From assembly GCA_965197475.1 (NCBI GenBank), contig CBDANF010000003.1:3328001-3392000 (forward strand): a DNA stretch of 64,000 nucleotides, read 5' to 3'. The notes below the pieces were generated by a model. It was not told where the DNA came from, ran no database searches, and saw only the letters and a program-made list of their open reading frames with translations. Position numbers and translations under genes: made by a program. This DNA comes from Candidatus Poribacteria bacterium (GTDB lineage: Bacteria > Poribacteria > WGA-4E > WGA-3G). Shown piece after piece: positions 6,908 to 63,695 of this stretch. Positions within the stretch are counted from its first letter, which is position 1. The number at the start of each line of letters is the position of its first letter.

Positions 6908-7696
6908 ATGTTTTACCGTTTGTTTGCATGGTTCTGTATTTTGAACCTCGTTTTGAGCGTAATGGCTGTAGAAGCTGCTAAAATTGCTGTTGTTGATTTT
7001 GCTGACCCGTGGACAGAGGTTGATGCGTTGCGTCAGACACTGAATGAATTCAAAGTTGAGTACGATGATCTGACAGAGGCACTTGAAGGTGGGGAGCTAC
7101 CTCTCAAAGCGGAAAATAGAATTTTCTTAATCGGTAGCATGACAACTAACAATGCTGGATTGCACCAAAACCTTGACAAGAATGCAAAAGCGATTCAGGA
7201 TTTCGTCGTAAATGGTGGTGTCGTCTGGGAACCGACCCAAGCTGATCAGAACGAAGCGAATGTGGATTGGTTGCCGCCTGAATTGAGTTGTGTTCGGGGT
7301 GACTCTGATAGTGCATCTTTTAAAATATTAGACGCGGACCATCCGCTCTTTAACGAACCAAACCGTATGAGTGAGGATACGTTTAAAGACTGGGGATTAA
7401 AAGGCTGGCCTACTGTTTGGGAAGCCATCGCTTCTCAGACAGGATTTGACGTGCTGGGGGAAGTTGAAAATTCGGGACAACCTGTCATTATGGAAGCGGA
7501 ATACGGGAAAGGTAAGTTCCTGATGATGGCAATTGCACCTGATGCATACTATATTGCAGGTAAAGATGACCATACGAAAGACATGGCAAAGCTTTTCATG
7601 GAGAATTTGCTGAACTATGTTGAAGAATTTGTATTTGCTGCTGTTGAATCAGATGGGAAGCTCACAACGAGGTGGGCGAATCTGAAAATGCGATAA
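6908..7696 (+). CDS. Secreted protein with GATase/ThuA-like domain and C-terminal KLTTRWANLK motif
   Basis: Signal peptide, DFVVNGG, HPLFNEPN, YGKGKFL; C-terminus AVESDGKLTTRWANLKMR; AGGAG RBS. Fold assignment is inference. Confidence 0.75.
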   Translation: MFYRLFAWFCILNLVLSVMAVEAAKIAVVDFADPWTEVDALRQTLNEFKVEYDDLTEALEGGELPLKAENRIFLIGSMTTNNAGLHQNLDKNAKAIQDFVVNGGVVWEPTQADQNEANVDWLPPELSCVRGDSDSASFKILDADHPLFNEPNRMSEDTFKDWGLKGWPTVWEAIASQTGFDVLGEVENSGQPVIMEAEYGKGKFLMMAIAPDAYYIAGKDDHTKDMAKLFMENLLNYVEEFVFAAVESDGKLTTRWANLKMR

Positions 7697-7757
7697 ATGG
7701 AATATTGGGCATTATCTCCCGGTTTTCCTCTTCCTCTAATTTGATTGACAACATATC

Positions 7758-7799
7758 TTTTCCATTATAGTGGTCCGTATGAACCACTATAATGGAAAA
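7758..7799. terminator. Hairpin between convergent genes, probable bidirectional terminator
   Basis: TTTTCCATTATAGTGGT / ACCACTATAATGGAAAA perfect 17-bp inverted repeat. Confidence 0.65.
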
Positions 7800-7820
7800 A
7801 TATTGACAAATGCAAAACCA

Positions 7821-8672
7821 CTATCGGACAGACTTTAAGTTGCCCCAGGTAGTAGTTAATTTATCCGCTGGTTCAACGGCAGTTACAGCTTCACTGCTAA
7901 GGACAACAAGGCCGGTCTTTTCAGGATTTTTCCCGTGGACAATAGCATGCGGATACCATCCACTCCAACCTTTTTGACCAGGAGCGTCATTATCGCCATC
8001 ATTGACACAGATGCTTAACCCAAATTCAAGTCCTTCACTAAGTGTGATATCAAGACCGAAATTCGCAGGAACGAATTTAAATTCATAATAGGTTTTCTTG
8101 GCACTCTCGTCTCGGATAATAGCAACATCCTCACCAGCAACGAGTCCAGGGTTGTTGTGGGTCCTCTCATTCATGTTCTGTGTGATGATGTTCTCTGCAC
8201 CATTGTCTAACGCTCCATTATACAGGAACTGAGGTTGTTGTGATGCCCGCTCGCCACCAAGTGTAAAGGTGAGTTGTGCGCCATCTCCTTCCCATGGATT
8301 TGCTCCGCCGTGTTCATGTTCGTCATCGGTAACCTCAAGCGCAAGATAGACCGCATCGGCATTCCACACAATCATGAAACAGGTCTCATGGTCTTCGGGA
8401 CCGCTCCAAGTGCCCCCTAAGTCTTCCCAAACTTTAACTACACTATCCCTTCCTTCAAATTCAACACCGCAAAACGTGCTGCCGTCGGTGCCTGTAACTG
8501 AGTCCATCACACCTGCCCATTCGTCAAGATTTCCATCAATTGTAACGTCAATACCAGTAGGGGCATTGTAAACATCGTGTGTTTCGCTGCGCCACTGTGC
8601 ATCTGCGATATTAATTGCGAATAATGATACTGCTGCGAATAGCGCAGCCAGTACAAAAACATATTTTGTCAT
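7821..8672 (-). CDS. Secreted CBM9/DOMON-like sugar-binding protein with C-terminal KLTTTWGNLK motif
   Basis: Signal peptide (ADA), TIDGNLDEW, WNADAVYLALEVTDD, YYEFK, FGLSICVNDGD; C-terminus AVEPADKLTTTWGNLKSVR. Confidence 0.8.
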   Translation of the reverse strand: MTKYVFVLAALFAAVSLFAINIADAQWRSETHDVYNAPTGIDVTIDGNLDEWAGVMDSVTGTDGSTFCGVEFEGRDSVVKVWEDLGGTWSGPEDHETCFMIVWNADAVYLALEVTDDEHEHGGANPWEGDGAQLTFTLGGERASQQPQFLYNGALDNGAENIITQNMNERTHNNPGLVAGEDVAIIRDESAKKTYYEFKFVPANFGLDITLSEGLEFGLSICVNDGDNDAPGQKGWSGWYPHAIVHGKNPEKTGLVVLSSEAVTAVEPADKLTTTWGNLKSVR

Positions 8673-8797
8673 CTAATTTCCCTCTCTTTTTTAATATTAA
8701 TTGTTTCCACCTTGGTGGAACTTTCAATAATGCAACAACGTTGCTTAATTTGTTAGTAATTTTTGGGCAGGCATTTCTGCCCAAAAGTAACGTTTAT

Positions 8798-8917
8798 CAG
8801 GACTTACGCAGTTGGTTTAGAAGTCCCCTTGATAAGGGGGTTAGGGGGTTAAAAGCACCAAATTCTGCCTATTTAACCCCCTAACCCCCTTATCAAGGGG
8901 GGAATGCGTAAGTCCTG
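8798..8917. mobile_element. 120-bp MITE-like palindromic element, copy 1
   Basis: TIR CAGGACTTACGCA / TGCGTAAGTCCTG, internal CCCCTTGATAAGGGGG and CCCCCTAACCCCC palindromes, flanking direct repeat GTTTAT. Confidence 0.85.
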
Positions 8918-9024
8918 GTTTATAATAAAATAAAACACGAGTACACTTCCGCAAGCGCGCTTACAAAGCGCGCCTACTACAATTTTCCAAAACCACGGAT
9001 ATAGATTGAAGCATGTCAAAACCT

Positions 9025-9852
9025 TTATCGGACTGATTTTAACCTACCCCATGTTGTCGTTAACTTGTTTTTAGCTTCAACAGCGAGAGTTTCATCTGTG
9101 AGTTTGACGAGACCTGTTTTTTCAGAATTCTTTCCGTGGACAATAGAATGTGGATACCATCCACTCCAACCTTTTTGACCAGGAGCGTCTTTATCGCCAT
9201 CATTGACACAGATGCCAAGCCCGAATTCGAAACCCTCAGTGAATTTATCGCCCCCATTCAATTCATCAGCAGAGAATCTGATTTCATAATAAGTTTCTTT
9301 CTCATTTTCATTTCGGACGATGGCAAAATCCTCACCTGCAGTGAGACCATTTTTTGCGGGTATCTCATTACCGGTAATTAAATTTTCAGCTTTATCGTCT
9401 AAGGCAACGTTATAGTGCCACATGGCTAAATCGTCACCTCGTTTTCCAGTCATTTCAAAAATAAGTTGAGTACTATCACCCTTCCAAGCACCACCACCAG
9501 AATGTTGATGCTCGTCATCAGTAACGCCTAGTGCAATATAAACAGCATCGGCATCCCACACAATCATGAAACAGGTTTCGTGGTCATCTGCTCCGTTCCA
9601 CTTTCCACCCTGATTTTCAAAAGCACCAAGGTTTTCAAATTCAACACCACAGAATGGTTCACCATCGGTACCTGTAACTGTTTCAATAACACCTTCCCAT
9701 CCCTCTTCATTATCAAGTTCGCCATCAATGGTAATGTCAGCAGGTTTTTGAAGCGCATTGTAAACGTCATGCGTATCGCTACGCCACTGTGCATCTGCTG
9801 CAACGCTTGTTAAAAATAGCAATAGTGTAATTGCAATCAAAAACTTTTTCAT
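9025..9852 (-). CDS. Secreted CBM9/DOMON-like protein, tandem paralog of 7821-8672
   Basis: Shares QWRSxTHDVYNA, TGTDG, DHETCFMIVW, CVNDGD.DAPGQKGWSGWYPH.IVHGKN; C-terminus AVEAKNKLTTTWGRLKSVR. Confidence 0.82.
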   Translation of the reverse strand: MKKFLIAITLLLFLTSVAADAQWRSDTHDVYNALQKPADITIDGELDNEEGWEGVIETVTGTDGEPFCGVEFENLGAFENQGGKWNGADDHETCFMIVWDADAVYIALGVTDDEHQHSGGGAWKGDSTQLIFEMTGKRGDDLAMWHYNVALDDKAENLITGNEIPAKNGLTAGEDFAIVRNENEKETYYEIRFSADELNGGDKFTEGFEFGLGICVNDGDKDAPGQKGWSGWYPHSIVHGKNSEKTGLVKLTDETLAVEAKNKLTTTWGRLKSVR

Positions 9853-11514: not shown

Positions 11515-11531
11515 ACGTTGTAACTCCCGTA

Positions 11532-25257: not shown

Positions 25258-26139
25258 TCACCTCATACTTTCATTAACAAATTTCCAGAATATGCTATCC
25301 ACATTCCGGTAGTTATATTTATAGCAAGCCTCAGCCACATATAGCGGGATATACCCAGTAGAGTAGTGGTGATGCTGTCCATACCATGCGCGTTTCAACA
25401 ACGCCCAAAAACCTTCAATAGTGTTCGTGTGGGTATCCCCATCAGCGAACTGTTCTTTGTGATTGATAACCCGATGTTTTATCTGCTTTCCGATCTCATT
25501 GTAAGCAGCATATTCATCGGTTATCAGTTCGGATTCATCTATTTTGACAGCATCCCGAATAAACGCCAGGATACCCCTTCCCGTTAAATCATCAGCAAGT
25601 TTAGCTACTACCTTACCTCCACGCTCAACTGCGCCAAGAATAGCGGATTTTGATGTTCCCCTTCCTCTTTTGGCGGGTTCATCGTCCTCGCGCTTGTTCT
25701 TTTTCCGAGGTTTGCCTCCTATATAAGTCTCATCTGCCTCAATAATACCCTTCAGCAGAGTTTGACCTTTAGTAGCCATTTCAGCACGAATGCGTTGCAT
25801 CATAAACCAAGCCGTCTTCTGATTCAGGTCTAAATCACGACTCAACTGATAACTGGACAAGCTCTTCTTTGCGTTTCCCATTAGTGAAATAGCCAGAAAC
25901 CACTTTTGAAGTGCGATCTTAGCCCCGTGAAACACTGTGCCTTGAGTAACCTTGAAGGTTGCCTTACAACCATTACAATTCCAACGACCAATCCGACCAG
26001 TTGCCGTCTCATTACGCCTGAAAACATCGGTAATCCCACAATGTGGGCAATGAGGCTTACCTTTCCATCGTATCTTCTCAAGATACTCAATACAGGATGA
26101 CTGGTCTGGGAATCTCTCCATAACCTTGATTAAATCCAT
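25258..26139 (-). CDS. IS1595-family (ISXO2-like) transposase
   Basis: CIEYLEKIRW, CPHCG, CNGC, EADETYIGG, KRGRGT, GAVERGG, ITDE, INH, HTNTIEGFWALLKR; start after TAGGAG. Confidence 0.93.
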   Translation of the reverse strand: MDLIKVMERFPDQSSCIEYLEKIRWKGKPHCPHCGITDVFRRNETATGRIGRWNCNGCKATFKVTQGTVFHGAKIALQKWFLAISLMGNAKKSLSSYQLSRDLDLNQKTAWFMMQRIRAEMATKGQTLLKGIIEADETYIGGKPRKKNKREDDEPAKRGRGTSKSAILGAVERGGKVVAKLADDLTGRGILAFIRDAVKIDESELITDEYAAYNEIGKQIKHRVINHKEQFADGDTHTNTIEGFWALLKRAWYGQHHHYSTGYIPLYVAEACYKYNYRNVDSIFWKFVNESMR

Positions 26140-26166
26140 CAGAATACTCCTATATGTCAAAAGGAG

Positions 26167-26262: not shown

Positions 26263-27093
26263 TTAAGACAAGTTTTTTTGCTCAAATTCCACAGGTGTCA
26301 AATACCCTAACGCAGAGTGAGGGCGTTTGTGATTATACACTTGTGTAATAAAATGCCCAATGCGGGTTCTTGCTTCGTGGATGTCCTCATAGTCATTGAG
26401 ATGAACTTCTTCTTCCTTGAGCGTGTGGATAAGTCTTTCAGCATATCCGTTCTCCCAAGGACACCCTCTCCGGGCGACTGAAATCTCAATCCCATGATGC
26501 CTAAGCAGTGAGATGGACGCATTTGAAAGATATTGAACGCCTTGATCAGAATGATGGATCTCTGGGACACTTTGACATAATGCTGTCTCCAAGGGTTTCA
26601 ACGTCAGAGATTGCGTCAAGTGTTGACTGATATGCCACCCTCTGATCATGCGAGTGAAGACATCCATGAGCAGACAAACATAGATAAAGTGTCCTTTGAG
26701 GCGGACGTAGGTAATATCGCCCACCCAGACCTGATTACATCGGGAGACATCAAGGTTTTCAAGGCGATTGCTCCAGGGACGCACACCCGCAACGGATGTC
26801 GTGGTTTGACAGACACGCTTGACAGAAACCGAGAGGTTGGCGGACTTCATCAATCGGGCAACACGTTTATACCCGATGGTGTATCCGCTACGCACCAACA
26901 ACTGTGTGGGACGCCTATATCCGTATGTTGGATATAGCAAAGATAACGTCTCTATTTCATCCTGGAGGCCCGCTTCACACGGGGCCTGCTTGGAGTGATA
27001 ATAGAGGTTGCTTCGGTTGAAACCGAGTGTCTCACATATCTGCCGAACCGAAAAGTCTGTCCGTAATGCCGTAACCATTTCTCGCTGCTCCAT
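26263..27093 (-). CDS. IS3-family transposase OrfB (DDE)
   Basis: YGYRR, WVGDITY, DVFTR, HHSDQGVQY, ENGYAER...LKEE, YNHKRPHSALGYLTP; in the -1 frame relative to OrfA. Confidence 0.93.
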   Translation of the reverse strand: MEQREMVTALRTDFSVRQICETLGFNRSNLYYHSKQAPCEAGLQDEIETLSLLYPTYGYRRPTQLLVRSGYTIGYKRVARLMKSANLSVSVKRVCQTTTSVAGVRPWSNRLENLDVSRCNQVWVGDITYVRLKGHFIYVCLLMDVFTRMIRGWHISQHLTQSLTLKPLETALCQSVPEIHHSDQGVQYLSNASISLLRHHGIEISVARRGCPWENGYAERLIHTLKEEEVHLNDYEDIHEARTRIGHFITQVYNHKRPHSALGYLTPVEFEQKNLS

Positions 27094-28184: not shown

Positions 28185-31100
28185 ATGTTCGGACGAGGAA
28201 GAAGTTTAATTGTCGTTTGTTTGTTGTATCTTTTTGTCTCCACGCTATTTCTTTCCGCACTCGCCTTTGCCCAAGATGAAGCGAACGATCAAAAAATCAT
28301 TGAACGTTATAAGCTTATGCTTAGCCGTAAACCGAAAGAAGGAAGTACATTTGACCGAGTCTATCAATTTTATCTTGAAGGTGCTGGGTTAGACGCAATG
28401 CTCAGCGATTATCAGACTGAGGCGAAAGCCAAACCCAACGATTCTAACCTCCAACTTATTTTAGGACACATATACAAACGTCTTGGTAAAGACGCTGAAG
28501 CAATCACTGCATATCAACGCGCAGTTGAACTCGCTCCGAACAATTATTATTCCCATTTTGCTTTGGGACAGATGCATGGGGCTTTGCGTCAACATGAGGA
28601 AGCAATCCAAAAGTTGACAAAAGCTGCAACATTGTCGGAACAATCACAGGATGTGCCACCGGAAGAGTTAACGGCAATCTATAAGGCACTCGGCAACGCT
28701 CATTTCCGTCGTGACAGAGTGGACGAAGCAATTCAGGCATGGAGAAAAATATCTGAATTTGATCCGCAGGACATCTTTGCACGTATTGAACTTGCAGACC
28801 TTTTCCGTGAGCAGGAACTATACGAACAGGCAATCGCACAACACAAGGCGATTATTGAACTGAAAAAGGACGACCCGTATCGGATCTGTTTGAGTCATAG
28901 GGAAATTGGCAATATCCATGAATCGAAAGGCAACTATGAGAATGCGATCCAAAGTTACGATACGGCACTTGCGCTAACAGCTCCGGGCAACTGGCTGCGT
29001 AAAGACCTTCAACACCGTATTATCGGTATCTTCGCGGCTGACAGCAATTGGGAAGGCTTAATCGAATACTACCAAGGTAAACTTGAAGCAACACCAAATG
29101 AACCGGAACTTCTCGGTTTGCTTGCTGCCGCATATATTGAGAATCAGCAGCTTGAAGAAGGTATCAGCACGTATCGAAAAGGATTAGAACTTGCCCCAAC
29201 CGATGCAAACCTACGTTTAAATCTTATCGCGTCCCTCCGCAATGTGGAAAAGTTTGAAGATGCTGCTGCGGAATACGAAGTACTTAGTCAACAAGATCCT
29301 GACGATTTTGGTATCTACCGCGAACTCGGTGAGTTGTATCTACAGCTTGGAAATCAGGACAAAGCTAAAACGGTATATCAGAAAATGATTGACCGTGATC
29401 CAAACAACGCTGGCACACATCTCATTCTTGCTGAAATTTACGCTGGACATGAATGGGTGGACGATGCTGCTGCACAATATGAAAAAGCAATCTCGCTTGC
29501 ACCTAATAATTTTGAGTATATTGAATATTTTGGTGAATTTTACTTACGGCAAGGAAATCGTGATAAGGCTATAGAAACCTGGAATCGAATGGTCGCTGAC
29601 GATAAAGCGATCGCTGCGAATTATGATCGACTGGCCCAACTGTTCAAGGCAAAAAATTTCAAAACTGAGGCTGTTGCTGCAATCCGAAAAGCCGTTGAAT
29701 TAATGCCCGATGAATATCGCTATCGCGAAGCATTGGCTAAGCACCTCATGGAGAACAGAGATTATGATGCGGCACTCACGGAATACACAGCGGCGATGAA
29801 ACTTGCGCCGAATGCGTTTTTTGCCGAGAAAATGGATGATAAAAGGATTGAACTCTACCGTAGACAAGGCACCCTTTTAGATAAAATCGAACTGCTGGAA
29901 ACTGAACTTGACAAACCTGGGTTAGCAGCTGCGGAGGTATTTTCACACCAAAAACAACTTGCCAAAATGTATCTCAAGTTGGGCAATATTACTTATGCAT
30001 TGGAAGTTCTTTTGAAAGCCAAACAACTCAAGTCTAATGACGTGGGTGTGAATCGGTGGCTCGCGGAGGTATACACCCGGCAAGGTAGACGCGATGAGGC
30101 AAATGCCATCTACATATTTCTAATTGAGATAGACAGCGCAAATGCTCGTGAATACCACGCGAACATCGCAAAGTCGTACCTGAACGTGATGGATTTTGAG
30201 GCGGCCACAGCATCCGCAAAGCGCGTTATTGCGCATAGTCCACGCAATCCTGAGGGACATCAACTGCTTGCACAAATTGCGAAACAATCCAAAAACTATG
30301 ATACCGCTATAGACAGTCTAAAACAGGCGATTCGTCTGCGACCCGAAGCGATTGACACACGCGCTGAATTGGCAGCTGTTTATAAACTTTCAGGAAAACT
30401 TCAACAAGCACTCGCTCAGTATTGGCGGTGTTGGAACTTGATCGATAATGTTAGTGATAAACTCACTTTTGTCAAACCCCTCTCTGAAGTATATTATGAC
30501 CTCGGCAGACGTGGGGAGTTTGAAGAAAAATTAAAGCAGCTGGCAAAATCAAATACCTCTTGGGTGGCACCTGTTCTTGCGCTTGCCGAACTCCACCGGA
30601 TGGAGGGGGACCTGCCGAGTGCTCGCTTCCAATTGGCACAGGCATTAAACAAACAGCGCGAAAATCCAGAACTCTTGGACCACCTAGTACGAATCAGTGT
30701 GGAACTTGGAGATATACAGGATGCTCTTACTTATCAACAACGGCTTGTCAAAGCAGACCCTGATCCGACTCACCAACAGAAACTTGGAGAATTGTTGTTT
30801 GATGTCGGACGTGAACAGGAAGCAATTCAAGCATGGACAAAACTGCTTCATGCTAAAAATCAGACACTTGAGGCGGAAGTTAAACTTGCAGCCTTACTGC
30901 TTCGGCACGGGTTGTCTGAAGAAGCATTTTTTGTGCTTGAACGCGCATCTGAGAAAATCGCTGGAACTGATGCACACCTCCCACTTTATCGGTTGGGATC
31001 TATGTTGGTTGGAATGAATGAAGCAGAACGTGCTCGGGTCTATTTCCGTCGGATTCTTGACATGTCTGAACCCCCTGGAAATATGGCAAAGCGCGGGACT

Positions 31101-38638: not shown

Positions 38639-39427
38639 ATGGTACGATCAATAATGTTTTCCTTCTTAGCCATACTAATGTTAATCACAGTCAGTAGTCT
38701 TATGGCAGGACTTGAAGACGATCTTGTCGTCTACTTCACGTTTGACGTTGTTGAAGACAAAACGATTCATGATAGTTCTCCTAATGGATTAGATGCAAAC
38801 ATCGTTGCTAATGCTGAAATTGTCACAGGCAAAAATGGCAATGCGATCAAGATCACCGCTAAAGGCGCGGATTGTGTGAACGTTCCCGCTCACGAAAAAC
38901 TGAAAATCAGCGGTGAAATTACCATGGCCTCCTGGATCTATCGAGAAGCGTGGAATAGTGATGGACAGTGGTTTGATAAAAACTGCCATAACGGAGGTGA
39001 GCATACCTCCTACGGTATGGGTGCTTTTGAAGGTGGCAAGAATATGAATGTGATGTTAGGAAGTGGTAATGCCCGTCCCAGATTGGACAAACCGCACTCG
39101 CTAAAAGCACAAACGTGGCACTATGTCGTCGGAACCTTCAATGGTGAAACGATGAAAGTCTATGTTGATGGTGAATTAGCACTTGAACATGCCGAGGCGT
39201 TTAATTTTACCGGCACTAACGATCAAGACCTGCGGATCGGATGCGCTAAGGACCGTGCAAACTACGGGTTCAATAACGGTATGATTGACGATGCCGCAAT
39301 ATGGAGTCGCGCACTCAGCGAAGATGAAATCAACGAGTCAATGGGCGGTGGTCTTCTCGCTGTTACACCGAAAAATAAAGCCGCGACAACCTGGGGCAAT
39401 ATTAAGCAAAGAACTATTGCCTACTAA
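38639..39427 (+). CDS. Secreted LamG/concanavalin-like protein with C-terminal TTWGNIK motif
   Basis: LVVYFTFD, ITMASWI, WHYVVGTF, VYVDG, GMIDDAAIWSRALS; C-terminus AVTPKNKAATTWGNIKQRTIAY. Confidence 0.9.
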   Translation: MVRSIMFSFLAILMLITVSSLMAGLEDDLVVYFTFDVVEDKTIHDSSPNGLDANIVANAEIVTGKNGNAIKITAKGADCVNVPAHEKLKISGEITMASWIYREAWNSDGQWFDKNCHNGGEHTSYGMGAFEGGKNMNVMLGSGNARPRLDKPHSLKAQTWHYVVGTFNGETMKVYVDGELALEHAEAFNFTGTNDQDLRIGCAKDRANYGFNNGMIDDAAIWSRALSEDEINESMGGGLLAVTPKNKAATTWGNIKQRTIAY

Positions 39428-44208: not shown

Positions 44209-45159
44209 TCACAGCAATATCCCTGTATTGGTATCGGGATCAACCATCTCTTTTAGACATGCATCCCAGTACGCCACAGTATACTGTTTTACCACATCAG
44301 ATTGATTATCCTGCTCAAGATAGTTTTCAATCCAATCAAGCAGACGTTGGCAAGGTGCAGAACGAATCTCACCACTGCTTTCATCATAGATGATGTCTCG
44401 AAAATCGGAAAGCGTGTCGGCTTCTAACTGCAAATCAGGCTCATAATACAACGTTAAATTTGCCATCAAACTGAGTGTTAACGTTTGAATTGGGTCAATA
44501 GCGATGCTGAGTGGTGGGTCAATCGTAAAAATATCGTCTAGTGGCAATGTTTGGACATAATTCCACCGAGCCTCAATATAATCTAACTGTTGGCGGATAA
44601 TCTCCATATCAGACAGATTTGTAAAGGCTCGAGGCGGATGGTTATTTCTTATTGTTACTTGGGCAGTGGAAATCGTAGTGTGGTATGCAGGTAGGGCGTT
44701 TAAAAATTCCGCTTCGGCATGGTTATAGATACGAACGTTGTCAATATCAAGATGGGTAAGGGATTCAGGCGGTTGAATCACCGCGTGTTCAAGAATATGG
44801 CTTGCCTTTTTCAGTAATTTATCTGTGAGCGTATTACCAATTTGGAAAAATTTGAAGATAGGGTTTGCAAGCAGCACTTGCACTGCTTTGTCCAAATTTC
44901 CACTGCTTCCGTATTCTAAGCCTAAACTCGTCAAAGCAAAGGAGGTTTGAATCTGTGCACGGAGTGCTGCTTCATCGGAAAGGTCATCAACCTTCATAGT
45001 AATAAGTTTATGTGCAAGTGCAGCGATATCCTCAGATAGCACCTCCGCTTTATCGGCATCAATTCTGCCGAGGGTATCGCCATGCACTAAGGTACGAGCC
45101 AAGAAAGATTGCCCATCAAGGGCTGCGTCTGTTACGAGGGAAAATTTACTCGTCCGCAT
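44209..45159 (-). CDS. DUF6178-like protein, C-terminal half
   Basis: SLGLEY...AVQVL...FFQIGNTL motif recalled from DUF6178; ATG overlaps the end of the upstream gene. Confidence 0.6.
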   Translation of the reverse strand: MRTSKFSLVTDAALDGQSFLARTLVHGDTLGRIDADKAEVLSEDIAALAHKLITMKVDDLSDEAALRAQIQTSFALTSLGLEYGSSGNLDKAVQVLLANPIFKFFQIGNTLTDKLLKKASHILEHAVIQPPESLTHLDIDNVRIYNHAEAEFLNALPAYHTTISTAQVTIRNNHPPRAFTNLSDMEIIRQQLDYIEARWNYVQTLPLDDIFTIDPPLSIAIDPIQTLTLSLMANLTLYYEPDLQLEADTLSDFRDIIYDESSGEIRSAPCQRLLDWIENYLEQDNQSDVVKQYTVAYWDACLKEMVDPDTNTGILL

Positions 45160-45952
45160 TATCCTCTTCATCCTCGGCAAGTTCAAGCGAATCCAAGTCA
45201 ACATGCTGCTGCAAGTCAGATTCAGTGACTTTGATTCCGGCTTTTTCATCGCGTGCTTTGACACGTTCAGCTCTTTCTGCGCTTGCCTTTTCTAATGCGG
45301 AGACTAATTCGGTTTCTACATCAACCTCTCTGTCAAGGACAAACATTTCTCGTAAGAGTTGCGTGAAGAGGTCGCCATCTGCCTCCCATATTGCATTGAG
45401 AATTGCTTTGGCTTGTTCATCTTTACAGTCAATTGAGGGTGAACTCGGATCAATGATACCTTCATCTACCATCATCGCACTGAGAGCACCTTTCAACCTA
45501 ACACGATTCTTAAGGAGCCCAGCAAGAATGCGCAAATCTATTTGTCTGAGGAACCGACTAAGGTCATCTCTCTCACATTCAGATAATTCAAACAGCCACA
45601 GATTCAGCGAATTTTCATCTAACTTTCCGTCGTGCCAAATAGCAATATCAATGATCTCTTCAAATTGTTCGTTGGACAAACATGGTAATAGACCGCAAGC
45701 GAGGCCGGTTCCAAGGAGTGTGTCTAACACCTGTAGAACATCTTCAGTAGGACTCTCCTGAATTAATTCTGTGCAATCTGGAACGAGATAATACAATTCT
45801 TCTCGTTGTTTGGGGTTGCGGGTGGCACGGATAATCTCAAGTTGCTGATCTTTTTCATAACTCCGAAAAAGTTGTTCTGCTTCGCGTGTTGGGAGCGATA
45901 ATAGTTTCTTAACTTCTGGTTGTGGGATAACCAATTTTGTTGAATTGCTCAT
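45146..45952 (-). CDS. DUF6178-like protein, N-terminal half
   Basis: EQF..IIDIAIW..G.LD....LWL motif recalled from DUF6178; acidic tail; GGGAGG RBS. Confidence 0.6.
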   Translation of the reverse strand: MSNSTKLVIPQPEVKKLLSLPTREAEQLFRSYEKDQQLEIIRATRNPKQREELYYLVPDCTELIQESPTEDVLQVLDTLLGTGLACGLLPCLSNEQFEEIIDIAIWHDGKLDENSLNLWLFELSECERDDLSRFLRQIDLRILAGLLKNRVRLKGALSAMMVDEGIIDPSSPSIDCKDEQAKAILNAIWEADGDLFTQLLREMFVLDREVDVETELVSALEKASAERAERVKARDEKAGIKVTESDLQQHVDLDSLELAEDEEDNADE

Positions 45953-46855: not shown

Positions 46856-47109
46856 ATTTCCCTCCTGTTGATTTTGAATTTTAACATAATCTTGGGCAGA
46901 TTTCAAATCGATTTTCATTTTTAGATGTGTAACATATTTGTCAAAAGTATGTATGGCGAAATGTTGCGAGGTCTATCGAAAAATAGCACCCTTCCTAAAA
47001 CCATTTTTTGTTGATAGGAACGGATACCAATGCTTAGTATACCATTAAAAAGTTGTGGGGTCAAAGAGAAACACGCTAACAACCTCTTGGTTTTACAGGA
47101 TGTCAAGCT

Positions 47110-47699
47110 GGCATTTGGTACTGCCGAGACAAAACACGCATCCAACGCCAGTTCAACCAGACGCACATCAGGGCGTGATGCGCTCGCCATCAGAACACCC
47201 ACAGGTCCCCCACGCTTTTCTGTAATCGCTACAAGTTTTGCCCCTTTACCACACTTCGTCTTACCGACACAAGCACCCCCTTTTTCCGCTGCAATGAACT
47301 TCGCATCAATGTAGCACTCACTCAGATTTAGTTGATGCCGTTTGTGAAGTTTATCTGCTACAGCTTTAAGCACTTTTTCCAGCGTTCCATCAGTAGACCA
47401 TTTCTGGAAACGACGATGGCACGTTTGATACGGCGGATACTTCTTCGGTAAATCACGCCACGGTGCTCCTGTCCGCAACACCCAAAGTATCGCATCTAAC
47501 ACTTCTCTATTTCCACGCCAAGGTCTCCCACGCTGTCCAGTCGACAGTTCAAGCAACAGTGGCTCAACGATTTTCCACGCTTTATCACTCAGTTCCATAC
47601 AAACCATCTCCTAACTTTCAGACATGCTCAAAAGTTTAACAGAGGTGAGTACTTATTAAAAGACTTTTTAGATTATTTGATTATTTATGAGATACGCTC
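47110..47699 (-). mobile_element. Truncated IS5-family element (IS427/IS1031-like)
   Basis: ELSDKAW..VEPLL, GRP, ILWVLRTGAPWRDLP..YPPYQTCHRRFQKW, ID, GKTKCGKG. Left end GAGCGTATCTCATAAAT next to TA. Homology stops near 47110 before the remaining catalytic residues; right boundary approximate. Confidence 0.82.
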
Positions 47700-50554: not shown

Positions 50555-51640
50555 TCATGGAGACGCATACTTTTCATTTTCGATGGATGTCTCAACACCA
50601 TATAACGCTTTTATATTTCCCCACTGCATGGGCAACTTTCCCTGCGGAGACACAGGCAAAGGTCCCTCTATCCAATCCGGATAATAGTCAAAACTCGGTT
50701 CCCGTGTCAATCGCCTGAGTCTACGTGTCGCAATCTCATACTTGTAGATGTCATGATCCGGGTCCTTTTCGGGAACATCTGTCCGTTTTGCTGAGAAAAG
50801 AATAGTGCGCCCGTTGTCCATCCAACTCAACCCGCCACCTGCCCACTCTCCACCGATCTTCTCATCAATATCAATTTCCTTTTTCCTACCGGTTTTAGAC
50901 AGAATAACGAATCGGTTGACAGGGTGTTCCCACTGTCCTATTGATTCAATAAAGAGAATCTGTTTTCCATCTGTTGACCAACGTGGGTAGAACCTGAAAA
51001 CGAATCCATCTTCTCCATCCGGATCTGGCACGAATGGTCGCTGGTTCTGTCCATCCGTGGACATGATCCAGACGGTTTTATGACTGATCCCTTTACCGCT
51101 TGGGACAAACTTTCCATAGACAATCTCTTCGCCGTTCGGGGACCAATCAGGACTGTATGAACCTGAGCCTTTTTTACCTTTAGCATCCGTTAACTGTTTT
51201 ACCTCTCGACTTTCCAAATCCATCACATAAATTTCCCGATGTCCACTTCTGTTGCTCTTAAATGCCAAATATCTTCCGTCTGGTGACCATGCAGAAGCTC
51301 CGTTTATATCGCCTTCAACGCTGTGGGTGAGCTGCTGTTGGTTAGTGCCGTCTGCGTTCATGATAAAAAGTTGATACTTTTGTGTGTCCTTCTCAAGGTT
51401 CCTATCAAAAGCGATACGCGTTCCATCCGGTGACCACCGCGGTCTGAGCTCCCAAAACTGATTGTCTGTTAACCTACGTCTGCCACTGCCATCATCGTTC
51501 ATGACGTAGATACTGCCGTACGCGTTATAGGCGATTTTGGCATTGGCAACGTAAGGAACAAACAACAAGAGGAGACAACAAGATATTAAAATTTGTGTAA
51601 CGTGTAGGATTAAAAGTTTCTTAAAGTTAGCAAGTTTCAT
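50555..51640 (-). CDS. Secreted TolB-like (PD40) beta-propeller with C-terminal KLPMQWGNIK motif
   Basis: Signal peptide (ANA), repeated WSPDG..IAF, IYVMN.DG; near the C-terminus PVSPQGKLPMQWGNIKALY. Confidence 0.88.
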   Translation of the reverse strand: MKLANFKKLLILHVTQILISCCLLLLFVPYVANAKIAYNAYGSIYVMNDDGSGRRRLTDNQFWELRPRWSPDGTRIAFDRNLEKDTQKYQLFIMNADGTNQQQLTHSVEGDINGASAWSPDGRYLAFKSNRSGHREIYVMDLESREVKQLTDAKGKKGSGSYSPDWSPNGEEIVYGKFVPSGKGISHKTVWIMSTDGQNQRPFVPDPDGEDGFVFRFYPRWSTDGKQILFIESIGQWEHPVNRFVILSKTGRKKEIDIDEKIGGEWAGGGLSWMDNGRTILFSAKRTDVPEKDPDHDIYKYEIATRRLRRLTREPSFDYYPDWIEGPLPVSPQGKLPMQWGNIKALYGVETSIENEKYASP

Positions 51641-51737
51641 CACTTTTCTCCTATGATTAGGGCGGACGCAAGATATACATCCGCGCCCGCCATTAAGAAC
51701 GCAGTAGTGGTAGACATCCGCATTCAGTTTGAAGGGG

Positions 51738-52367
51738 TTACTGCCCATCCCAATTCCAATCGTCTATGCCCAGAGGCTGGTGGACAAGTTCAATAACCAG
51801 TTCGTCATCTACCTCCCATATATCTATCTCTCTAATCCCATCACCATTAAGATCCTTCTTTGCTGTTAAGGTAGACTCTGCAGTAAGCGTGTATCTGCCC
51901 GCATGTTTAGTACCCAGATTGTATTCCTTAAGATGCTCGTCGTCCACCCACCAGTAGCCAAGATCATCGGGATTATTTGCCCAATACGAACCTAAAAAGC
52001 CGTGGTGGCTCCAAACATCGTCATCCGCATAACTAAGAGGTCCTTCAATCCTGCTGACGAAGTCAACGTAGAATCGAAGATCGTTAATCTGATCCGGCCA
52101 GTCAGGGAGACCTCCCGAATAATTATTGATGTATGCTGAATGAACGCTGTGAGCTATTGGGTATTCATACCCCGTCCATACTACAACGCGTCCGTATACA
52201 AAAGTTAGGATCTGATGTTTTCCGCCGAATCCCTCAACGCGCTCTGATTCTGACCATGGATGTGCAATCTCACCATCGTCCGTATAGACGTGCGCGTGAA
52301 GATGCGTTGAAACAAAACAGGTCAATCCTATTAGCCCGATGAGGGCTATCATTGCTAAATTTTTCAC
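51738..52367 (-). CDS. Secreted hypothetical protein (acidic, Trp/Tyr-rich)
   Basis: Signal peptide, AAGGAG RBS, no recognised domain. Confidence 0.7.
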   Translation of the reverse strand: MKNLAMIALIGLIGLTCFVSTHLHAHVYTDDGEIAHPWSESERVEGFGGKHQILTFVYGRVVVWTGYEYPIAHSVHSAYINNYSGGLPDWPDQINDLRFYVDFVSRIEGPLSYADDDVWSHHGFLGSYWANNPDDLGYWWVDDEHLKEYNLGTKHAGRYTLTAESTLTAKKDLNGDGIREIDIWEVDDELVIELVHQPLGIDDWNWDGQ

Positions 52368-52751: not shown

Positions 52752-53689
52752 GAGGGTATTGGTTAAATAATGATGCAAGAATTAGCGGGATACCCTCTGA
52801 ACCGCGCTGCATCATATTTCAGTTGCGGTAATGATAACACTTATAACGAGAGTTGTCAATGAAAAAATCAGACTGATTTTCATTGACTTATATGCCTAAA
52901 ACTTGTATCCTCATTGAAAACAACTCATTTCTACTCACAGGAGGATACCATGAAAGCGTGTCCAAGATGTCAACATATTCACTTCGTCAAAAACGGGTTC
53001 GTCAACGCAAAACAACGTTATAAATGTCCAAGTTGCCACTATCAATTCACACGCAAAACACCACGAGGTAAACCCCAGACACATAAAACCCTCGCTCTGC
53101 TCTTGGACTGCCACGGTATTTCAATGAATGCTATCTCAAAACTCTTCAACATTCATGTAACAACTGTTCTCAAATGGGGACGCTCCTATGCGAAAAAACA
53201 CGCCCCGAAACGGACATTTTCACCCGGATCCACCGTAGTTTTGGAGCTTGATGAAATGTGGCATTATATCGGAAAGAAGAAAAACAAACTTTGGATATGG
53301 AAAGCACTTGACAGGAACACAGGATACCTCATAGATTGGCAATGCGGCGGACGCAACACAGAAACCCTTGAAAAACTGACGCATCGCCTCAAAGCCTTGA
53401 ATGTCAAAATGTCCTACACCGACAAGTGGCAGGTGGACGAATCCATCCTACCTGCTTCAAAACATGTTCAAACGAAGGCGGAGACACATCGCATTGAACG
53501 CAACAATTGCTTGATGCGGCACTGGTTCGGCCGGTTCAAACGTCCGTCCATTATTGTTTCAAAAAGTGTGGAGATGGTGAACCTAACGATTGCCTTGTTC
53601 GCACGATTTCGTGTTAATGGAGACGTGTTTGACATTTTAAAACTTGGCGGAATGGAAACCATGAATATCATTAGTTAGGCAATACCCTC
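52752..53689 (+). mobile_element. IS1-family insertion sequence, copy 2
   Basis: Left IR GAGGGTATTGGTTAAATAATGAT, right IR ATCATTAGTTAGGCAATACCCTC; leader homologous to the end of copy 1. Confidence 0.88.
52950..53678 (+). CDS. IS1-family transposase
   Basis: Colinear homolog of 5952-6680; ATG after AGGAGG. Confidence 0.92.
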   Translation: MKACPRCQHIHFVKNGFVNAKQRYKCPSCHYQFTRKTPRGKPQTHKTLALLLDCHGISMNAISKLFNIHVTTVLKWGRSYAKKHAPKRTFSPGSTVVLELDEMWHYIGKKKNKLWIWKALDRNTGYLIDWQCGGRNTETLEKLTHRLKALNVKMSYTDKWQVDESILPASKHVQTKAETHRIERNNCLMRHWFGRFKRPSIIVSKSVEMVNLTIALFARFRVNGDVFDILKLGGMETMNIIS

Positions 53690-61200: not shown

Positions 61201-61425
61201 TCAGAAGCGTATCAATATCTTAGGTGCGTCGAAAACGCATTGCGGATTGTGCATGATCGCGCATTAGATGCGTTGCCTACAAACCGATCAGAATTGACAC
61301 AATTAGCACGGCGGCTTGGATACACGGAAACTGATAATACATCTATCGTAGAGGCGTTTTTGCAGGATTACGGAAAATGGACTGAAAAGACTCGTTCATT
61401 ATTCAATGAGATTCTTGTTAATTGA
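58273..61425 (+). CDS. glnE: Bifunctional glutamine synthetase adenylyltransferase/adenylyl-removing enzyme
   Basis: Two nucleotidyltransferase domains with MGK(L/F)GG.ELNFSSD.D, D.RLRP, WERQAL..AR, VK.G.G...DIEF.VQ.LQ. Confidence 0.97.
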   Translation: MMNYAELPLPQRQREEIHRILSDVSDRDGGVDSESILRGIQELATEDTDTRSYFADIVIPLLETCLDSPNPEAALTNFSRFTVVAFNRKWVYQLLRDAPFLMQTVMLIFGASSYLSEILIRNPIYFYDIIDANVMDALKTPDSMYNELSTAIGRYRDVDQKLHIIRRYKQRESLRIALRDLLHAADVETTTLEMTNLAEAALQHCYEIGRDQMMKSKFGTPLNEDGTAPCRFAVIGMGKLGGFELNFSSDIDLIFVYSDEGQTDEGVDNSEYYSRLCEFIIKAMSEVTVEGYVFRVDIRLRPESSAGVIIRSMESYESYYEGWGDLWERQALIKARPVAGDMAFGDEFIRMIQPFVYQRYLDGVTLNEIKVDIHNTKMRIEERLVGERADLEKHVKLGPGAIRDIEFTVQCLQMIHGGKRKSLCSQNTLETIAALKANEQLDAQDADALSEAYRYLRRVENCIQIEADQQRYAVPVKEEEEIQLARRLGYRAAALETFRQDYRTHKTRVREIFEKVMNVHEPDRLDVPVLLSQDNPEEIQMQLGKFGFENAREAHRLLRQLANGTDGQQFSPAVRRTFFKLAPVLLKCLSESPDPDMALRYFDAFAAKVGARSSYYTMFMERQGALEALTSVCGSSLYLADLLIASPELFDLLTVPTFTEYPKTLAKKQEEVLQILANTPDAHLLRALRRYKNDEIWRIALRNILGNADLPTTTEELSDLAEAILQGIYPQIDAQLREEHGTPLINDRTPVTFAIIAMGKFGGRELNFSSDLDVMYVYTADGETTQGMPNSEYFSILGLELVNQLGGNHDMSIYELDLRLRPYGTGGAIALPLKGYQNYYDHTAEIWERQALTRARVVAGDVEGVGNQFMEMAHAFSYRQPLTSEDIAEIVRTRQRKEAQATRKTKPRRRRSGKVQKPTANVKSGYGGLVDIEFAVQTLQLIHGTDTTSVRVPNTLLAIDRLHAIGVLTEEQRTGLSEAYQYLRCVENALRIVHDRALDALPTNRSELTQLARRLGYTETDNTSIVEAFLQDYGKWTEKTRSLFNEILVN

Positions 61426-61558
61426 TCAGAAGATTTCTAATCAAGTTAGTTGGTATAAAAAGTTATAGGTGGCAACTTGGGTTATTAAATATGCCCATTT
61501 TGTGCAGCTTTTTCTCAATATTTTGTAGAAAACCCTGTCAGTACAGTCCTTTCCAGAT

Positions 61559-61574
61559 TGGCACGGAATTTGCG
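61559..61574 (+). promoter_or_regulatory. Sigma54 (-24/-12) promoter
   Basis: TGGCACGGAATTTGCG is an exact TGGCAC-N5-TTGC match, intergenic, about 120 nt upstream of ATG 61696. Confidence 0.75.
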
Positions 61575-61695
61575 TGACGTAGCCAGGGTGTCCCAATCCT
61601 TTATTCAACGTGTAGAAGGTCTACCGAAAAGGATAGGGAACCTGATAAATAACCGATATGCTACAAAAGCATGTCACCTTAAAAGGAGCTATAAA

Positions 61696-62601
61696 ATGCG
61701 GATATTAAGATCAATCGGCATTGCAGCGGCGATGCTATGTTCTCTATTGCTAATTGGGATAAATAGCAGCGATGCTTATGAAATTGTGGAATTCCCGTCT
61801 GATACCGAAGTTCAGACGTATGGTGATTACACATACCACATGGCGCATCTAAAAACCGACGTGCCATATCTTTGGATAGAATGGTATGTTGACGATAAGC
61901 TCGTAGATATAGACCGGGGCGATGGTGTCAAAACTAAATCCTATTTCTCCCCCTACGGTAAAATACCCGGTGCCGTTCAAGGGGAAAAACATACGATAGA
62001 GGCATTTGCTGCTTTCACGTATGTGGAGGATCTGGAGAATGTGGATTGGGACAGGATATGGGACTGGGTGTATGCTTGGAGGATATTGATTTTCATGGAT
62101 TCCGATTCCTACAAGGTGAGATCCTTTGAATCCGTCCCCAGTTTTGCTAATGGCATCCTACAGACATCCTGGGAAAAACCCCGTGTCACCGGTGTCGCTG
62201 GCTACGCGTATGTCACACGCCACTATTTCAACGGAACCGCTTTCGTTATGGAGGCTTATGTCTATGCCTACAACGGCACCGAGCACGACTTCGCGGTCGC
62301 ATCCTGGTTCCGACAGCAGAAGTACACCGCAGACGGGGGCGTGGAGTGGGGAAAACGAGATCCGCCTTTTAACACACCCATTGTTTCCGTTCCGCTTCCG
62401 GCCGGACAATCGTATTCTGATTCCGCCAATTCTGGGGTGATCGAATATCCATTCGAAGGACCGATCGGACGTAATGAAACGCTTTATTTTGATGCACATA
62501 CGCACCTCCAAGTGCATGGTGTAGTACAGGGTAAGACTATCGTAGACGACTGGGAAGCGGATACAACTGTTCTGGAGTTTACGGAAGAACACAATCCATA
62601 A
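61696..62601 (+). CDS. Secreted hypothetical protein (acidic, aromatic-rich)
   Basis: AAGGAG RBS, signal peptide ending SDA, no recognised domain. Confidence 0.75.
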   Translation: MRILRSIGIAAAMLCSLLLIGINSSDAYEIVEFPSDTEVQTYGDYTYHMAHLKTDVPYLWIEWYVDDKLVDIDRGDGVKTKSYFSPYGKIPGAVQGEKHTIEAFAAFTYVEDLENVDWDRIWDWVYAWRILIFMDSDSYKVRSFESVPSFANGILQTSWEKPRVTGVAGYAYVTRHYFNGTAFVMEAYVYAYNGTEHDFAVASWFRQQKYTADGGVEWGKRDPPFNTPIVSVPLPAGQSYSDSANSGVIEYPFEGPIGRNETLYFDAHTHLQVHGVVQGKTIVDDWEADTTVLEFTEEHNP

Positions 62602-62609
62602 ATCCACTA

Positions 62610-62642
62610 TAACGGCAGGGGACACGTTCCCCTGCCATTTCT
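62610..62642 (+). repeat. 33-bp direct repeat with hairpin, copy 1
   Basis: TAACGGCAGGGGACACGTTCCCCTGCCATTTCT, identical at 63710-63742. Confidence 0.9.
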
Positions 62643-62658
62643 CACAAGGAGAATAGCC

Positions 62659-63695
62659 ATGCGTTTACACAAAGTCGTTTTGCTCAGTCTCTTGCTACTA
62701 CTTTTATCAACTGGAGCGTCTGCCAAAATCGTTTTTGGCTCCGTACGCGACGGTGTGGAGGGTATCTACGTTATGGACGATGACGGTAGCAACCAGACGC
62801 TTATCACCGAAGACAAAGAGTTGCAGCCATACCCCACTTCCTGGTCACCAGACGGTAAACAGATTCTATTTAAGAGACGCGCGCGGATAAACGGAAATGG
62901 TGTTCTTTTCTTGATGAATGCGGACGGCACGAATGTTCGGCAACTCACAGAAGACGATGATAGTTATATCAATACGGGTAGATTTTCACCGGATGGTAAA
63001 TCTATCGTTTTTCGAAGGTCAGTTCGGATAAACAACACGTCCAAATATAGCATCGTCGTGCTAAACATAAAGACAGGGAAGATGAAACAAATATCAGATA
63101 GCTGGGGTATCCAATGCGATTGGTCGCCAGATGGCAAGCATATTGTATTTGCACATCCACGCGGGGGCAATGGTAGCACGATTTGGATTATGGGTTCGGA
63201 TGGTCAAAACCCGCGCGAACTTCTCCCGCACCGCGTTGGTGGAGAATTCACGAATTACCGATCGAGACCGCGCTGGTCACCTAACGGTAAACAGATTGTT
63301 TTTCAACAAATAGAGTATAAATACGTGTTCATACCGAATGAGGGGAACTTTCTTTTCTACAAGGCGTTTCAGTATATGATTTGTGATCAGAACGGAGAGA
63401 ACGTTAGAAAACTACGAATACCGAGTAACTGGAAAGGGTATGGTATGGATTGGATGGATGACGGTAAATCAATCGTTTTCAGTGCGTATGTCAGCATACC
63501 TGTGAACAAACTGCTACCGCGCGGGTTTGTGTCTCCACCGAGCAATATCTATAAGTATCATATCCAGACGCACGAGATCACACGGCTAACAGACATCCGG
63601 GCACAGATGGGACACTGGATTGGATCAGCGATGATGCACATGCTGTGACCGCAGTCGGCAAAAAAAAAGTAACGTGGGGAACGTTGAAAAAATAA
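62659..63695 (+). CDS. Secreted TolB-like (PD40) beta-propeller with a 1-nt frameshift near the C-terminus
   Basis: Signal peptide (ASA), WSPDGK repeats. After a shift near 63595 the frame reads PGTDGTLDWISDDAHAVTAVGKKKVTWGTLKK* ending at 63695. Confidence 0.85.

Follow-up and report, generated by a model that had tools for sequence, protein, structure and literature searches.

A short "TWG" C-terminal tag on exported proteins of Poribacteria and its likeness to the T9SS passenger/CTD junction

Poribacteria are dominant, still uncultured sponge symbionts. In the window considered here, i.e., the whole 64-kb stretch of poribacterial DNA that was analysed, six genes for exported proteins carry nearly the same tail of ~18 residues, which we call the poribacterial "TWG" C-terminal protein tag. 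This raises the question of what kind of signal the tail might be, and which machinery could read it. Judged from its sequence, the tag would most simply be a detached part of a T9SS sorting signal.

A six-frame regex scan with the strict motif gave exactly six matches in the whole window and none in any other frame, and these are the peptides quoted in the original prediction, which had described six signal-peptide proteins sharing a tail at or near the C-terminus. Its coordinates denote gene starts or ends and not motif positions. An exported 262-aa protein (6908..7696, forward strand) carries AVESDGKLTTRWANLK at 7640-7687, with only MR before the stop. Two exported CBM9-like paralogs lie on the reverse strand, one of 283 aa (7821..8672, AVEPADKLTTTWGNLK at 7880-7833) and one of 275 aa (9025..9852, AVEAKNKLTTTWGRLK at 9084-9037), and both end in SVR after the tail. 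Further downstream, an exported 262-aa LamG (Laminin_G_3) protein (38639..39427, forward strand) has AVTPKNKAATTWGNIK at 39359-39406, then QRTIAY and the stop. The last two are PD40 propeller genes, namely a 397-aa ORF on the reverse strand (50555..51748, PVSPQGKLPMQWGNIK at 50656-50609, then 17 more residues) and a forward-strand gene with a frameshift near 63594 (62659..63692), whose tail AVTAVGKKKVTWGTLK lies in the other frame at 63642-63689, followed by K and the stop. The stop thus falls 1-6 residues past the motif in five of the six, and the 50555 gene extends by 17 residues. The proposed frameshift is real, as the paralog L014 aligns in two frames, residues 1-314 with 62659-63594 in one (64% identity) and residues 315-347 with 63594-63692 in the second (79% identity). 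All six proteins have a signal-peptide-like N-terminus, which in the 50555 gene comes after an internal Met. As to the four cargo kinds named originally, Pfam found CBM9_1 in two proteins, Laminin_G_3 in one and a PD40 propeller in two, whereas "GATase-like" is weakly supported for the 6908 protein, which has no firm Pfam domain and a weak match to Glyco_hydro_42M only (E 0.038). In searches of Pfam (E up to 0.1) and NCBIfam (E up to 1), the tail itself matched no model, and neither a CTD model nor the NCBIfam PEP-CTERM models matched the six proteins.

Genome-wide, the consensus reads h-L-A-V-E-P-x-G-K-L-A-T-T-W-[G/A]-x-[L/I]-K, after which come 1-4 residues, basic or polar for the most part, before the stop. 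A scan with a tail HMM, as had been suggested for examining the C-terminal position, gave 127 matches of at least 10 bits, and 118 of these end within 12 residues of the stop. A core regex matched 121 times in ORFs of at least 60 aa (109 within 25 residues of the stop), and 130 times in ORFs of at least 30 aa vs. 27 times on reversed proteins as control; the tail pattern far exceeds chance. With a regex leaving the Trp position free, Trp was found in 73 of 73 terminal tails. Moreover, 1-4 residues separate motif and stop in 97/108 tails, in agreement with the earlier description of a tail that lacks a TM helix and does not approach the length of a T9SS CTD. The families do decay, since 25 of the 118 tail ORFs stay below 150 aa, among them 10 copies with a frameshift. 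In an alignment of 22 LamG paralogs, with 18-29% identity to its first sequence (the LamG protein of the window), three of the four invariant columns fall within the tail.

The original placing of such tails in Poribacteria holds throughout the phylum, as the strict DNA pattern is present in 174 of 176 phylum genomes (reversed-pattern control: 0). The two genomes without a strict match retain a variant tail, with 9 and 16 loose matches where the control gave 2 and 3; their CTDs number 27 and 53. Among the matches listed, named records with the pattern are nearly all Candidatus Poribacteria and, in public species genomes, 120 of 127 have a stop within six codons downstream. Viral contigs gave 21 pattern matches, mostly chance, of which three stand at the ends of ~312-aa ORFs (L243, L245, L256). 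No account of this tail was found in the literature searched. The proposed profiling for co-occurring peptidase or translocon genes proved uninformative inside the phylum: there is no tail-free lineage, and co-occurrence and shared descent are inseparable because every phylum genome has both the tag and CTDs.

The proteins carrying the tag are diverse and exported, consistent with the original description of a domain-independent tail on signal-peptide proteins. BLAST separated 90 of them into 24 groups, which makes at least 24 unrelated kinds of cargo. Pfam assigned LamG, LTD, cadherin, LRR and NPCBM domains among 35 representatives and, below its cut-off, M10/M12B peptidases, PD40, YWTD, CBM9, DUF1080-type, F5/8C, CBM4_9, beta-helix and Kelch; 10 of the 35 had no family. 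The suggested check for signal-peptide co-occurrence was positive, with 70/93 tail ORFs of at least 150 aa passing a crude signal-peptide test vs. 1136/3558 background ORFs, and the N-termini are type-I Sec signals and not those of lipoproteins. Tail proteins have a median length of 264 aa (n = 90) vs. 877.5 aa for CTD ORFs (n = 40), and CTD-bearing relatives exist for 16 of the 90 tail cargos. In sum, tag carriers are mostly small lectin-, propeller- or adhesin-like Sec-exported proteins.

A link to the T9SS comes from CTD proteins, in which the same segment directly precedes N[YF]PNPF in 6 of 41 CTD ORFs of this genome. This junction pattern is present in 53 of 61 phylum genomes (control: 0), and all 16 junctions sampled from 15 further genomes have T-T-h-G-x-I-K after V-x-P in their upstream part, for which the pattern did not select, with V-E-S replacing V-x-P in one. 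The tail HMM scored these sampled junctions at 1.2-19.5 bits, and CTD ORFs of this genome lacking the segment at -0.2 bits or less, or not at all. Querying the 40-residue junction region in a word-based protein search returned four orthologs only, and such a search is unsuited to counting the tag. A second junction type has a helical [RKQH]-G-[IL]-x-x-[LIV]-[EQ] element before the CTD in 24 ORFs; it was terminal in 0/29 matches, so tails do not arise from all junctions. The original prediction of a dedicated system is hence upheld with regard to a domain-independent tail on exported proteins, but not as a wholly separate one, as the same segment forms the T9SS passenger/CTD junction.

The two contexts differ in detail. 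Terminal tails have an invariant Trp and an invariant Lys. At junctions, the Trp position is mostly taken by L, I or F, with W kept in one of the 16 sampled elsewhere and in two of the six of this genome, and the preceding Lys is often lost, which indicates constraints on the terminal tails beyond a shared cleavage motif. This difference could suggest a new and specific binding role, with the tag acting in an independent sorting or docking system, either as a non-covalent plug into an envelope or surface receptor, as in dockerin-cohesin pairs, or via an undescribed enzyme, and the CTD-junction likeness reflecting only its origin. Scaffold display of ~100 small binding-type proteins per genome would fit, as would a tail predicted to be unfolded and short-linear-motif-like. 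However, the surroundings of the tail genes offered no candidate receptor or enzyme: no gene family within four genes of 117 tail genes was convincingly enriched (the top matches belonged to very large repeat families or were parts of the broken tail genes themselves), and genes with an outer-membrane C-terminal signature within three genes were not enriched either (4 observed vs. 4.9 expected). The genome likewise lacks matches to sortase (PF04203; the control matched in three genomes) and exosortase (PF09721; the control matched in one genome), and we consider such an independent system rather doubtful.

Structure predictions are of low confidence for the segment in both contexts. In AF2 models, tail residues 242-262 of the LamG protein of the window have pLDDT <50 after a confident LamG domain, and in a junction copy residues 26-56 have pLDDT <50, adjoining the CTD at 83-97. 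That the segment might extend the CTD fold was unsupported by AF2, in a model built on an alignment of 18 sequences only. The residue after Trp, left unconstrained in 92 tails, is G in 60, A in 27, S in 3 and E in 2, i.e., G/A/S in 90 of 92. Excerpts of Ye et al., 2025 (PMC11969387) describe a cleavage-site motif in the coil ahead of the CTD, with G, S or A usually favored at +1. The residues following Trp match this published PorU preference, and a cut at this position may be inferred.

Homology to a linker region and predicted disorder, together with the decay of the families, would also suit a tail without any sorting role, be it the leftover linker of lost CTDs, a stabilising cap, or a site of periplasmic proteolysis or quality control. 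Yet a relic would neither remain invariant beside cargo that has diverged to 18-29% identity, nor hold the stop 1-4 residues past the motif in 97/108 tails, nor last in 174/176 genomes, and we regard this explanation as very improbable.

Which machinery could read the tag? TIGR04183 found 51 CTD matches above cut-off in this genome, and five genes of the PorV family were above theirs; a PorV ortholog occurs in 40 of 41 phylum genomes. Other components were matched below cut-off: three PorU-like ORFs scored 279 bits or less (cut-off 420), a SprA-like ORF scored 65.8 bits (cut-off 200), and GldK matches were partial, covering the C-terminal half of the model and, in some ORFs, a short piece of the N-terminal part as well, with 117 bits or less (cut-off 350). 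GldM had no match here, but its control likewise matched in no genome. The T9SS core thus looks incomplete in these searches. Excerpts of an earlier study mention CTDs in Poribacteria and report no Por machinery (Kamke et al., 2014; PMC3909097).

Given that this genome has CTD cargo along with genes of the PorV family and an ORF resembling SprA, the tail could also be a minimal T9SS export signal, i.e., a much-reduced CTD bound by PorV or the SprA-like translocon, which would carry small folded proteins across the outer membrane. The small tail proteins and large CTD ORFs would suit two grades of one signal and, as excerpted, Ye et al., 2025 (PMC11969387) describe three-strand "short" CTDs and cite the last 22 residues of Hbp35 as sufficing for secretion and attachment of GFP. 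Against this, the tail resembles the pre-CTD segment and not the last two strands with motifs D and E, both TIGR04183 and PF18962 fail to match the tails, and tandem placement before a full CTD (53/61 genomes) would be redundant; we judge this explanation unlikely.

We tentatively favor, as possible though somewhat short of probable, a reading in which the tag represents the part of the T9SS signal that forms the junction or cleavage site, acting without a CTD and read by PorU/PorV-type surface machinery. Here, the tag would work as a short linear motif, unfolded until bound, and its reader would be the surface attachment part of the T9SS, comprising a PorU-type sortase and a PorV-family partner. 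The cut would fall between the invariant Trp and the following small residue, the short stub past the motif standing in for the CTD as leaving group, and the new C-terminus would then become attached to a glycan of the surface or be retained on the cell by other means. To our knowledge, a tail lacking the CTD has no path through the T9SS translocon, which counts against this reading; one secretin gene is present in the genome. Also against it speaks the description, in the abstract of PMC4804311, of P. gingivalis PorU cleavage as sequence-independent. Further points against it are the Trp and Lys constraints on terminal tails, the incomplete look of the T9SS core, the lack of gene enrichment beside tail genes, and the inseparability of co-occurrence from shared descent. 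A complex prediction of canonical PorV (residues 23-310) with the last 30 residues of the LamG protein scored 0.00 and carries no weight either way.

A variant, which we hold to be somewhat unlikely, would let the CTD-less ~18-residue motif act as an autonomous sorting signal: a dedicated paralog of the PorU-type sortase would read it, cut after Trp and fix more than 100 small lectin-like proteins per cell to the surface. Deep PorU-like paralogs, two to three per genome, occur in 41/41 phylum genomes, and in the family richest in tails 22 of 23 genomes have three, against two in every remaining family but one; as the genomes are related, this pattern amounts to one or two evolutionary events only, and the three-paralog families are a lead only toward such a dedicated enzyme. 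If true, the Gram-negative PorU family would gain its first known short sortase-type motif, one that works apart from T9SS translocation.

As ~100 exported binding proteins carry it in each genome, the tag probably determines a large part of the host-facing cell surface of these symbionts, and a model of it would help annotators with thousands of "hypothetical" proteins. The link to the T9SS junction makes it testable, e.g., by C-terminal peptides in metaproteomes or by PorU-like domains acting on synthetic tails. If the favored reading were confirmed, part of the T9SS signal could function alone.

Among known systems, LPXTG/sortase, PEP-CTERM/exosortase and GlyGly-CTERM/rhombosortase combine a signal peptide with a short C-terminal motif and a basic end on many unrelated cargos, and in each a hydrophobic or transmembrane helix follows the motif and a dedicated enzyme gene exists. 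The TWG tail shares with these tripartite signals the signal peptide, the short C-terminal motif, the unrelated cargos and the basic end, but has no hydrophobic helix and only 1-4 residues past the motif. This leaves no room for the helix of an LPXTG signal and, together with the missing PF04203 and PF09721 matches, sets the tag apart from LPXTG/sortase and PEP-CTERM/exosortase, and the missing helix speaks against membership in GlyGly-CTERM/rhombosortase, too. The type-A CTD of the T9SS (TIGR04183/PF18962 Por_Secre_tail; PF13860-type) is, like the tag, C-terminal on unrelated Sec-exported passengers; it is a beta-sandwich of 60-100 aa with motifs D and E, whereas terminal tails have ~18 residues, neither motif and no beta-sandwich, and match none of the CTD family models. 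In excerpts of PMC11969387, V-x-P-x-G-K-L-x-T-T-W is not reported for Bacteroidota CTD junctions, and T9SS signals are described that work although much shortened, namely three-strand CTDs in Prevotella intermedia and the 22-residue signal of Hbp35. These short signals retain motifs B, D and E, or else the final two strands, whereas the TWG tail corresponds to the pre-CTD region. It is the T9SS cleavage-site region that the tag resembles in its setting, as its segment likewise lies in a low-confidence coil between folded passenger and CTD, where PorU sites are located according to the same excerpts (PMC11969387).

The six proteins on which the original prediction was based share a C-terminal peptide of about 18 residues (h-L-A-V-E-P-x-G-K-L-A-T-T-W-[G/A]-x-[L/I]-K; hereafter the tail or tag). 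A six-frame scan of the window with the predicted motif [AP]V-x3-[GDN]K-x3-4-W[GA]x[LI]K gave exactly six matches, at 7640-7687(+), 7880-7833(-), 9084-9037(-), 39359-39406(+), 50656-50609(-) and 63642-63689(+), and none elsewhere. A stop codon follows one to six residues past the motif in five of the six, and the gene at 50555 encodes 17 further residues beyond it. The sixth tail lies out of frame with its own ORF (62659-63648); since a paralog aligns to this gene in one frame over 62659-63594 and in another over 63594-63692, the frameshift that had been assumed here is real. The N-termini of all six proteins are signal-peptide-like, as had been proposed. Pfam assigned CBM9_1 to two of them, PD40 to two and Laminin_G_3 to one, the protein encoded at 6908 giving a weak match only, and no Pfam or NCBIfam model covers the tail region of the six.

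An ECF-type sigma factor gene (3916-4497, -) precedes an ORF of 203 aa without a Pfam match (3293-3904, -), and a 658-aa TPR protein is encoded next (1272-3248); the sigma factor gene and the 203-aa ORF may form a sigma/anti-sigma unit located a few kb from the tail genes at 6908, 7821 and 9025. The 64 kb also contain five transposase-type ORFs (5952-6680, 25258-26160, 26263-27093, 46921-47607 and 52914-53678), namely two IS1, one IS1595, one rve integrase and one IS4/5 DUF4096.

On the scale of the genome to which the window belongs (G000; 5.70 Mb, three contigs, 43% G+C; the window is C3:3328001-3392000), a core regular expression matched 121 times in ORFs of at least 60 aa, with 109 matches located within 25 residues of the stop; in the control, on ORFs of at least 30 aa, 130 forward matches compared with 27 on reversed proteins. 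An HMM trained on 101 tails placed 118 of its 127 matches (≥10 bits) no more than 12 residues from the stop, and 93 of these 118 terminal-tail ORFs are at least 150 aa long. A crude signal-peptide test was passed by 70 of the 93, compared with 1136 of 3558 background ORFs, and several of the failing ORFs are plain start-codon miscalls. The N-termini represent type-I Sec signals, and a lipobox is absent. Among the 25 tail ORFs shorter than 150 aa, ten correspond to frameshifted copies of full-length ones, and some others are seemingly stop-truncated. Within the window, the overlapping ORFs 44209-45264 and 45146-45952 (-) match DUF6178 in its C-terminal and its N-terminal portion; as with the sixth tail gene, a frameshift probably divides a single gene here. 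Such frameshifts, in the DUF6178 gene and the ten short tail ORFs, could reflect either many pseudogenes or indel errors of the assembly. A local tag duplication was observed in the region C3:2062920-2064500 (contig C3 of G000), where a 148-aa ORF carries a tandem tail core (...G-K-L-A-T-R-W-A-H-I-K-H-S-E-G-K-L-A-T-R-W-A-H-I-K-H-S...).

With the tail removed, 90 tail proteins fell into 24 BLAST groups, including 34 LamG proteins, 21 in an LRR/LTD/cadherin/NPCBM group, seven PD40 proteins and many singletons. Pfam searches with 35 cargo representatives identified Laminin_G_3, LTD, Cadherin with Dockerin, LRR and NPCBM, and, as weak matches below the cut-off, M10/M12B peptidases, PD40, Ldl_recept_b, CBM9, 3keto-disac_hyd, F5_F8_type_C, CBM_4_9, Beta_helix and Kelch; ten of the 35 matched no Pfam family. 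This variety of cargo bears out the proposal that the tail is independent of the preceding domain. Across 22 aligned LamG paralogs, each only 18–29% identical to the first sequence, the LamG protein of the window, no more than four columns are invariant; the Lys, Trp and Lys of the tail account for three of them. Trp was found in 73 of 73 terminal tails when its position was left free in the regular expression. The following residue, likewise left free, was G in 60, A in 27, S in three and E in two of 92 tails (reversed control: 0). Past the last Lys, 97 of 108 tails continue for one to four residues, which are enriched in R (20%), K (12%) and Q (10%).

Beyond G000, a degenerate DNA pattern for K-[LF]-x-T-T-W-[GA]-x-[LIM]-K was searched in one genome per species and gave at least 127 matches; among the 80 listed, nearly all records are titled Candidatus Poribacteria. 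A stop follows within six codons in 120 of 127 matches and after 7–12 codons in four. Matches in Synechococcus, Thiotrichaceae and Erysipelotrichaceae were rejected as chance matches. One contig labelled Pseudomonadota (L114, L115) carries two genuine terminal tails about 1 kb apart, and this MAG contig may be a misbinned poribacterial one. In the phylum, 174 of 176 genomes contain the pattern, typically in 20–80 copies, and the reversed pattern was found in none. In the two negative genomes, both of one genus, a looser pattern matched 9 and 16 times versus 2 and 3 in the control; of 16 sites inspected in one of these genomes, about ten proved to be real tails in which the T-T is relaxed. As far as sampled, the whole phylum thus carries the tag, which leaves no tail-free lineage for phylogenetic profiling. 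Of 21 pattern matches on viral-classified contigs of IMG/VR, three (L243, L245, L256) lie in ORFs of about 312 aa whose C-termini are genuine-looking tails (...K-L-x-T-T-W-G-x-[LM]-K, then two or three residues); the remaining 18 are apparently chance matches. No description of the tail came up in literature searches.

The tag is best interpreted as the junction portion of a type IX secretion (T9SS) signal, i.e., the segment between the passenger domain and the type-A C-terminal domain (CTD), which now stands alone at the C-terminus of more than 100 small exported binding proteins. G000 contains 51 type-A CTD matches, mostly ending large ORFs (median 877.5 aa, n = 40, versus 264 aa for tail proteins, n = 90). 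In six of 41 CTD ORFs, the tail segment directly precedes the N[YF]PNPF opening the CTD, with Trp in two and Leu or Ile in four at the Trp position. The pattern G-x-I-K plus six residues plus N[YF]PNPF occurs in 53 of 61 phylum genomes (control: 0), with up to 20 copies in one genus. In 16 of 16 sampled junctions from 15 other genomes, the upstream part, which the pattern had not selected, reads T-T-h-G-x-I-K, preceded by V-x-P except for V-E-S in one; Trp is present in one of the 16. The tail HMM scored 1.2–19.5 bits on these junctions and at most -0.2 bits, or no match, on G000 CTD ORFs lacking the segment, a contrast that partly follows from how the junctions were selected. Moreover, 16 of the 90 tail cargos have CTD-bearing relatives (E 1e-8), so the same cargo families occur with either ending. 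A second, helical-looking junction (D-D-G-S-x-x-F-x-R-G-I-x-x-L-E-x-L-L ... P-x-K-T-A-L-L) precedes the CTD in 24 ORFs (e.g., C2:964577-965026), and none of its 29 matches is a terminal tail.

AlphaFold2 models of both settings were built from shallow alignments. For the last 150 residues of a protein carrying tail and CTD (18 aligned sequences), pLDDT was 83–97 in the CTD and below 50 for residues 26–56, which contain the segment; for the LamG protein of the window (22 paralogs), the LamG domain was confident and residues 242–262 were below 50. Based on these low values in both models, the segment appears to behave as an unfolded linear motif, terminal as well as pre-CTD.

Candidate machinery was found in part. 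The PorV family is expanded in G000, with about nine paralogs (14 matched pieces, five above the cut-off; e.g., C3:1413526-1414401, C3:3991278-3992201 and C2:1206430-1207353), and an ortholog of its best member is present in 40 of 41 phylum genomes. Several PorV-family genes immediately follow giant CTD ORFs (2196–5213 aa), which looks like an arrangement of dedicated barrel-and-cargo pairs. Three PorU-like ORFs of 1749–2196 aa (C3:63668-68764, C2:1200210-1205780 and C3:3901215-3905594), each with its own CTD, cover most of the PorU sortase model at scores under the cut-off, and the PorV-family gene C2:1206430-1207353 comes after one of them. Using the catalytic region of one ORF as query, two to three deeply diverged paralogs were detected in 41 of 41 genomes; three paralogs are present in 22 of the 23 genomes that belong to the same family as the window, and most of the other genomes have two. 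G000 further encodes a SprA-like ORF of 2194 aa (under the cut-off), GldK matches that are partial along the model and under the cut-off, and one secretin. GldM had no match in G000, with a control that likewise matched nowhere, and no sortase or exosortase was matched in G000. Neighbours of tail genes in G000 showed enrichment neither of gene families nor of outer-membrane genes. Within the window, a giant ORF of 3406 aa (28185-38405, +), which lacks a CTD, combines a signal-peptide-like N-terminus with long TPR arrays and a single Laminin_G_3 domain (residues 2528–2694). The tail-bearing LamG gene lies downstream of it on the same strand, at a distance of 233 bases. As TPR arrays can bind peptide ends, the product of the giant ORF is conceivable as a candidate tail receptor.

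Regarding published work on T9SS, Kamke et al. (2014; PMC3909097) noted CTDs in Poribacteria and reported having found no Por structural genes. According to Ye et al. (2025; PMC11969387), T9SS cargo is cleaved in the coil separating the folded passenger from the CTD, a cleavage-site motif is reported for Prevotella intermedia, and the +1 position of the cut usually shows a preference for G, S or A. The poribacterial segment resembles this region in its position in the same coil and the small residue after Trp, and on these grounds a PorU-type enzyme would cut the tail between Trp and G/A/S. PorU cleavage is called sequence-independent in the abstract of PMC4804311, which counts against a strict motif. 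Ye et al. (2025) also describe short three-strand CTDs as functional and cite earlier work in which the last 22 residues of Hbp35 were enough for GFP secretion and attachment. Reading of the tag by a PorU/PorV-type attachment machinery is a tentative proposal, to which we give somewhat less than an even chance. In contrast to full T9SS cargo, the tail proteins carry no CTD, and their terminal tails feature an invariant Trp and Lys which the junction copies do not need.
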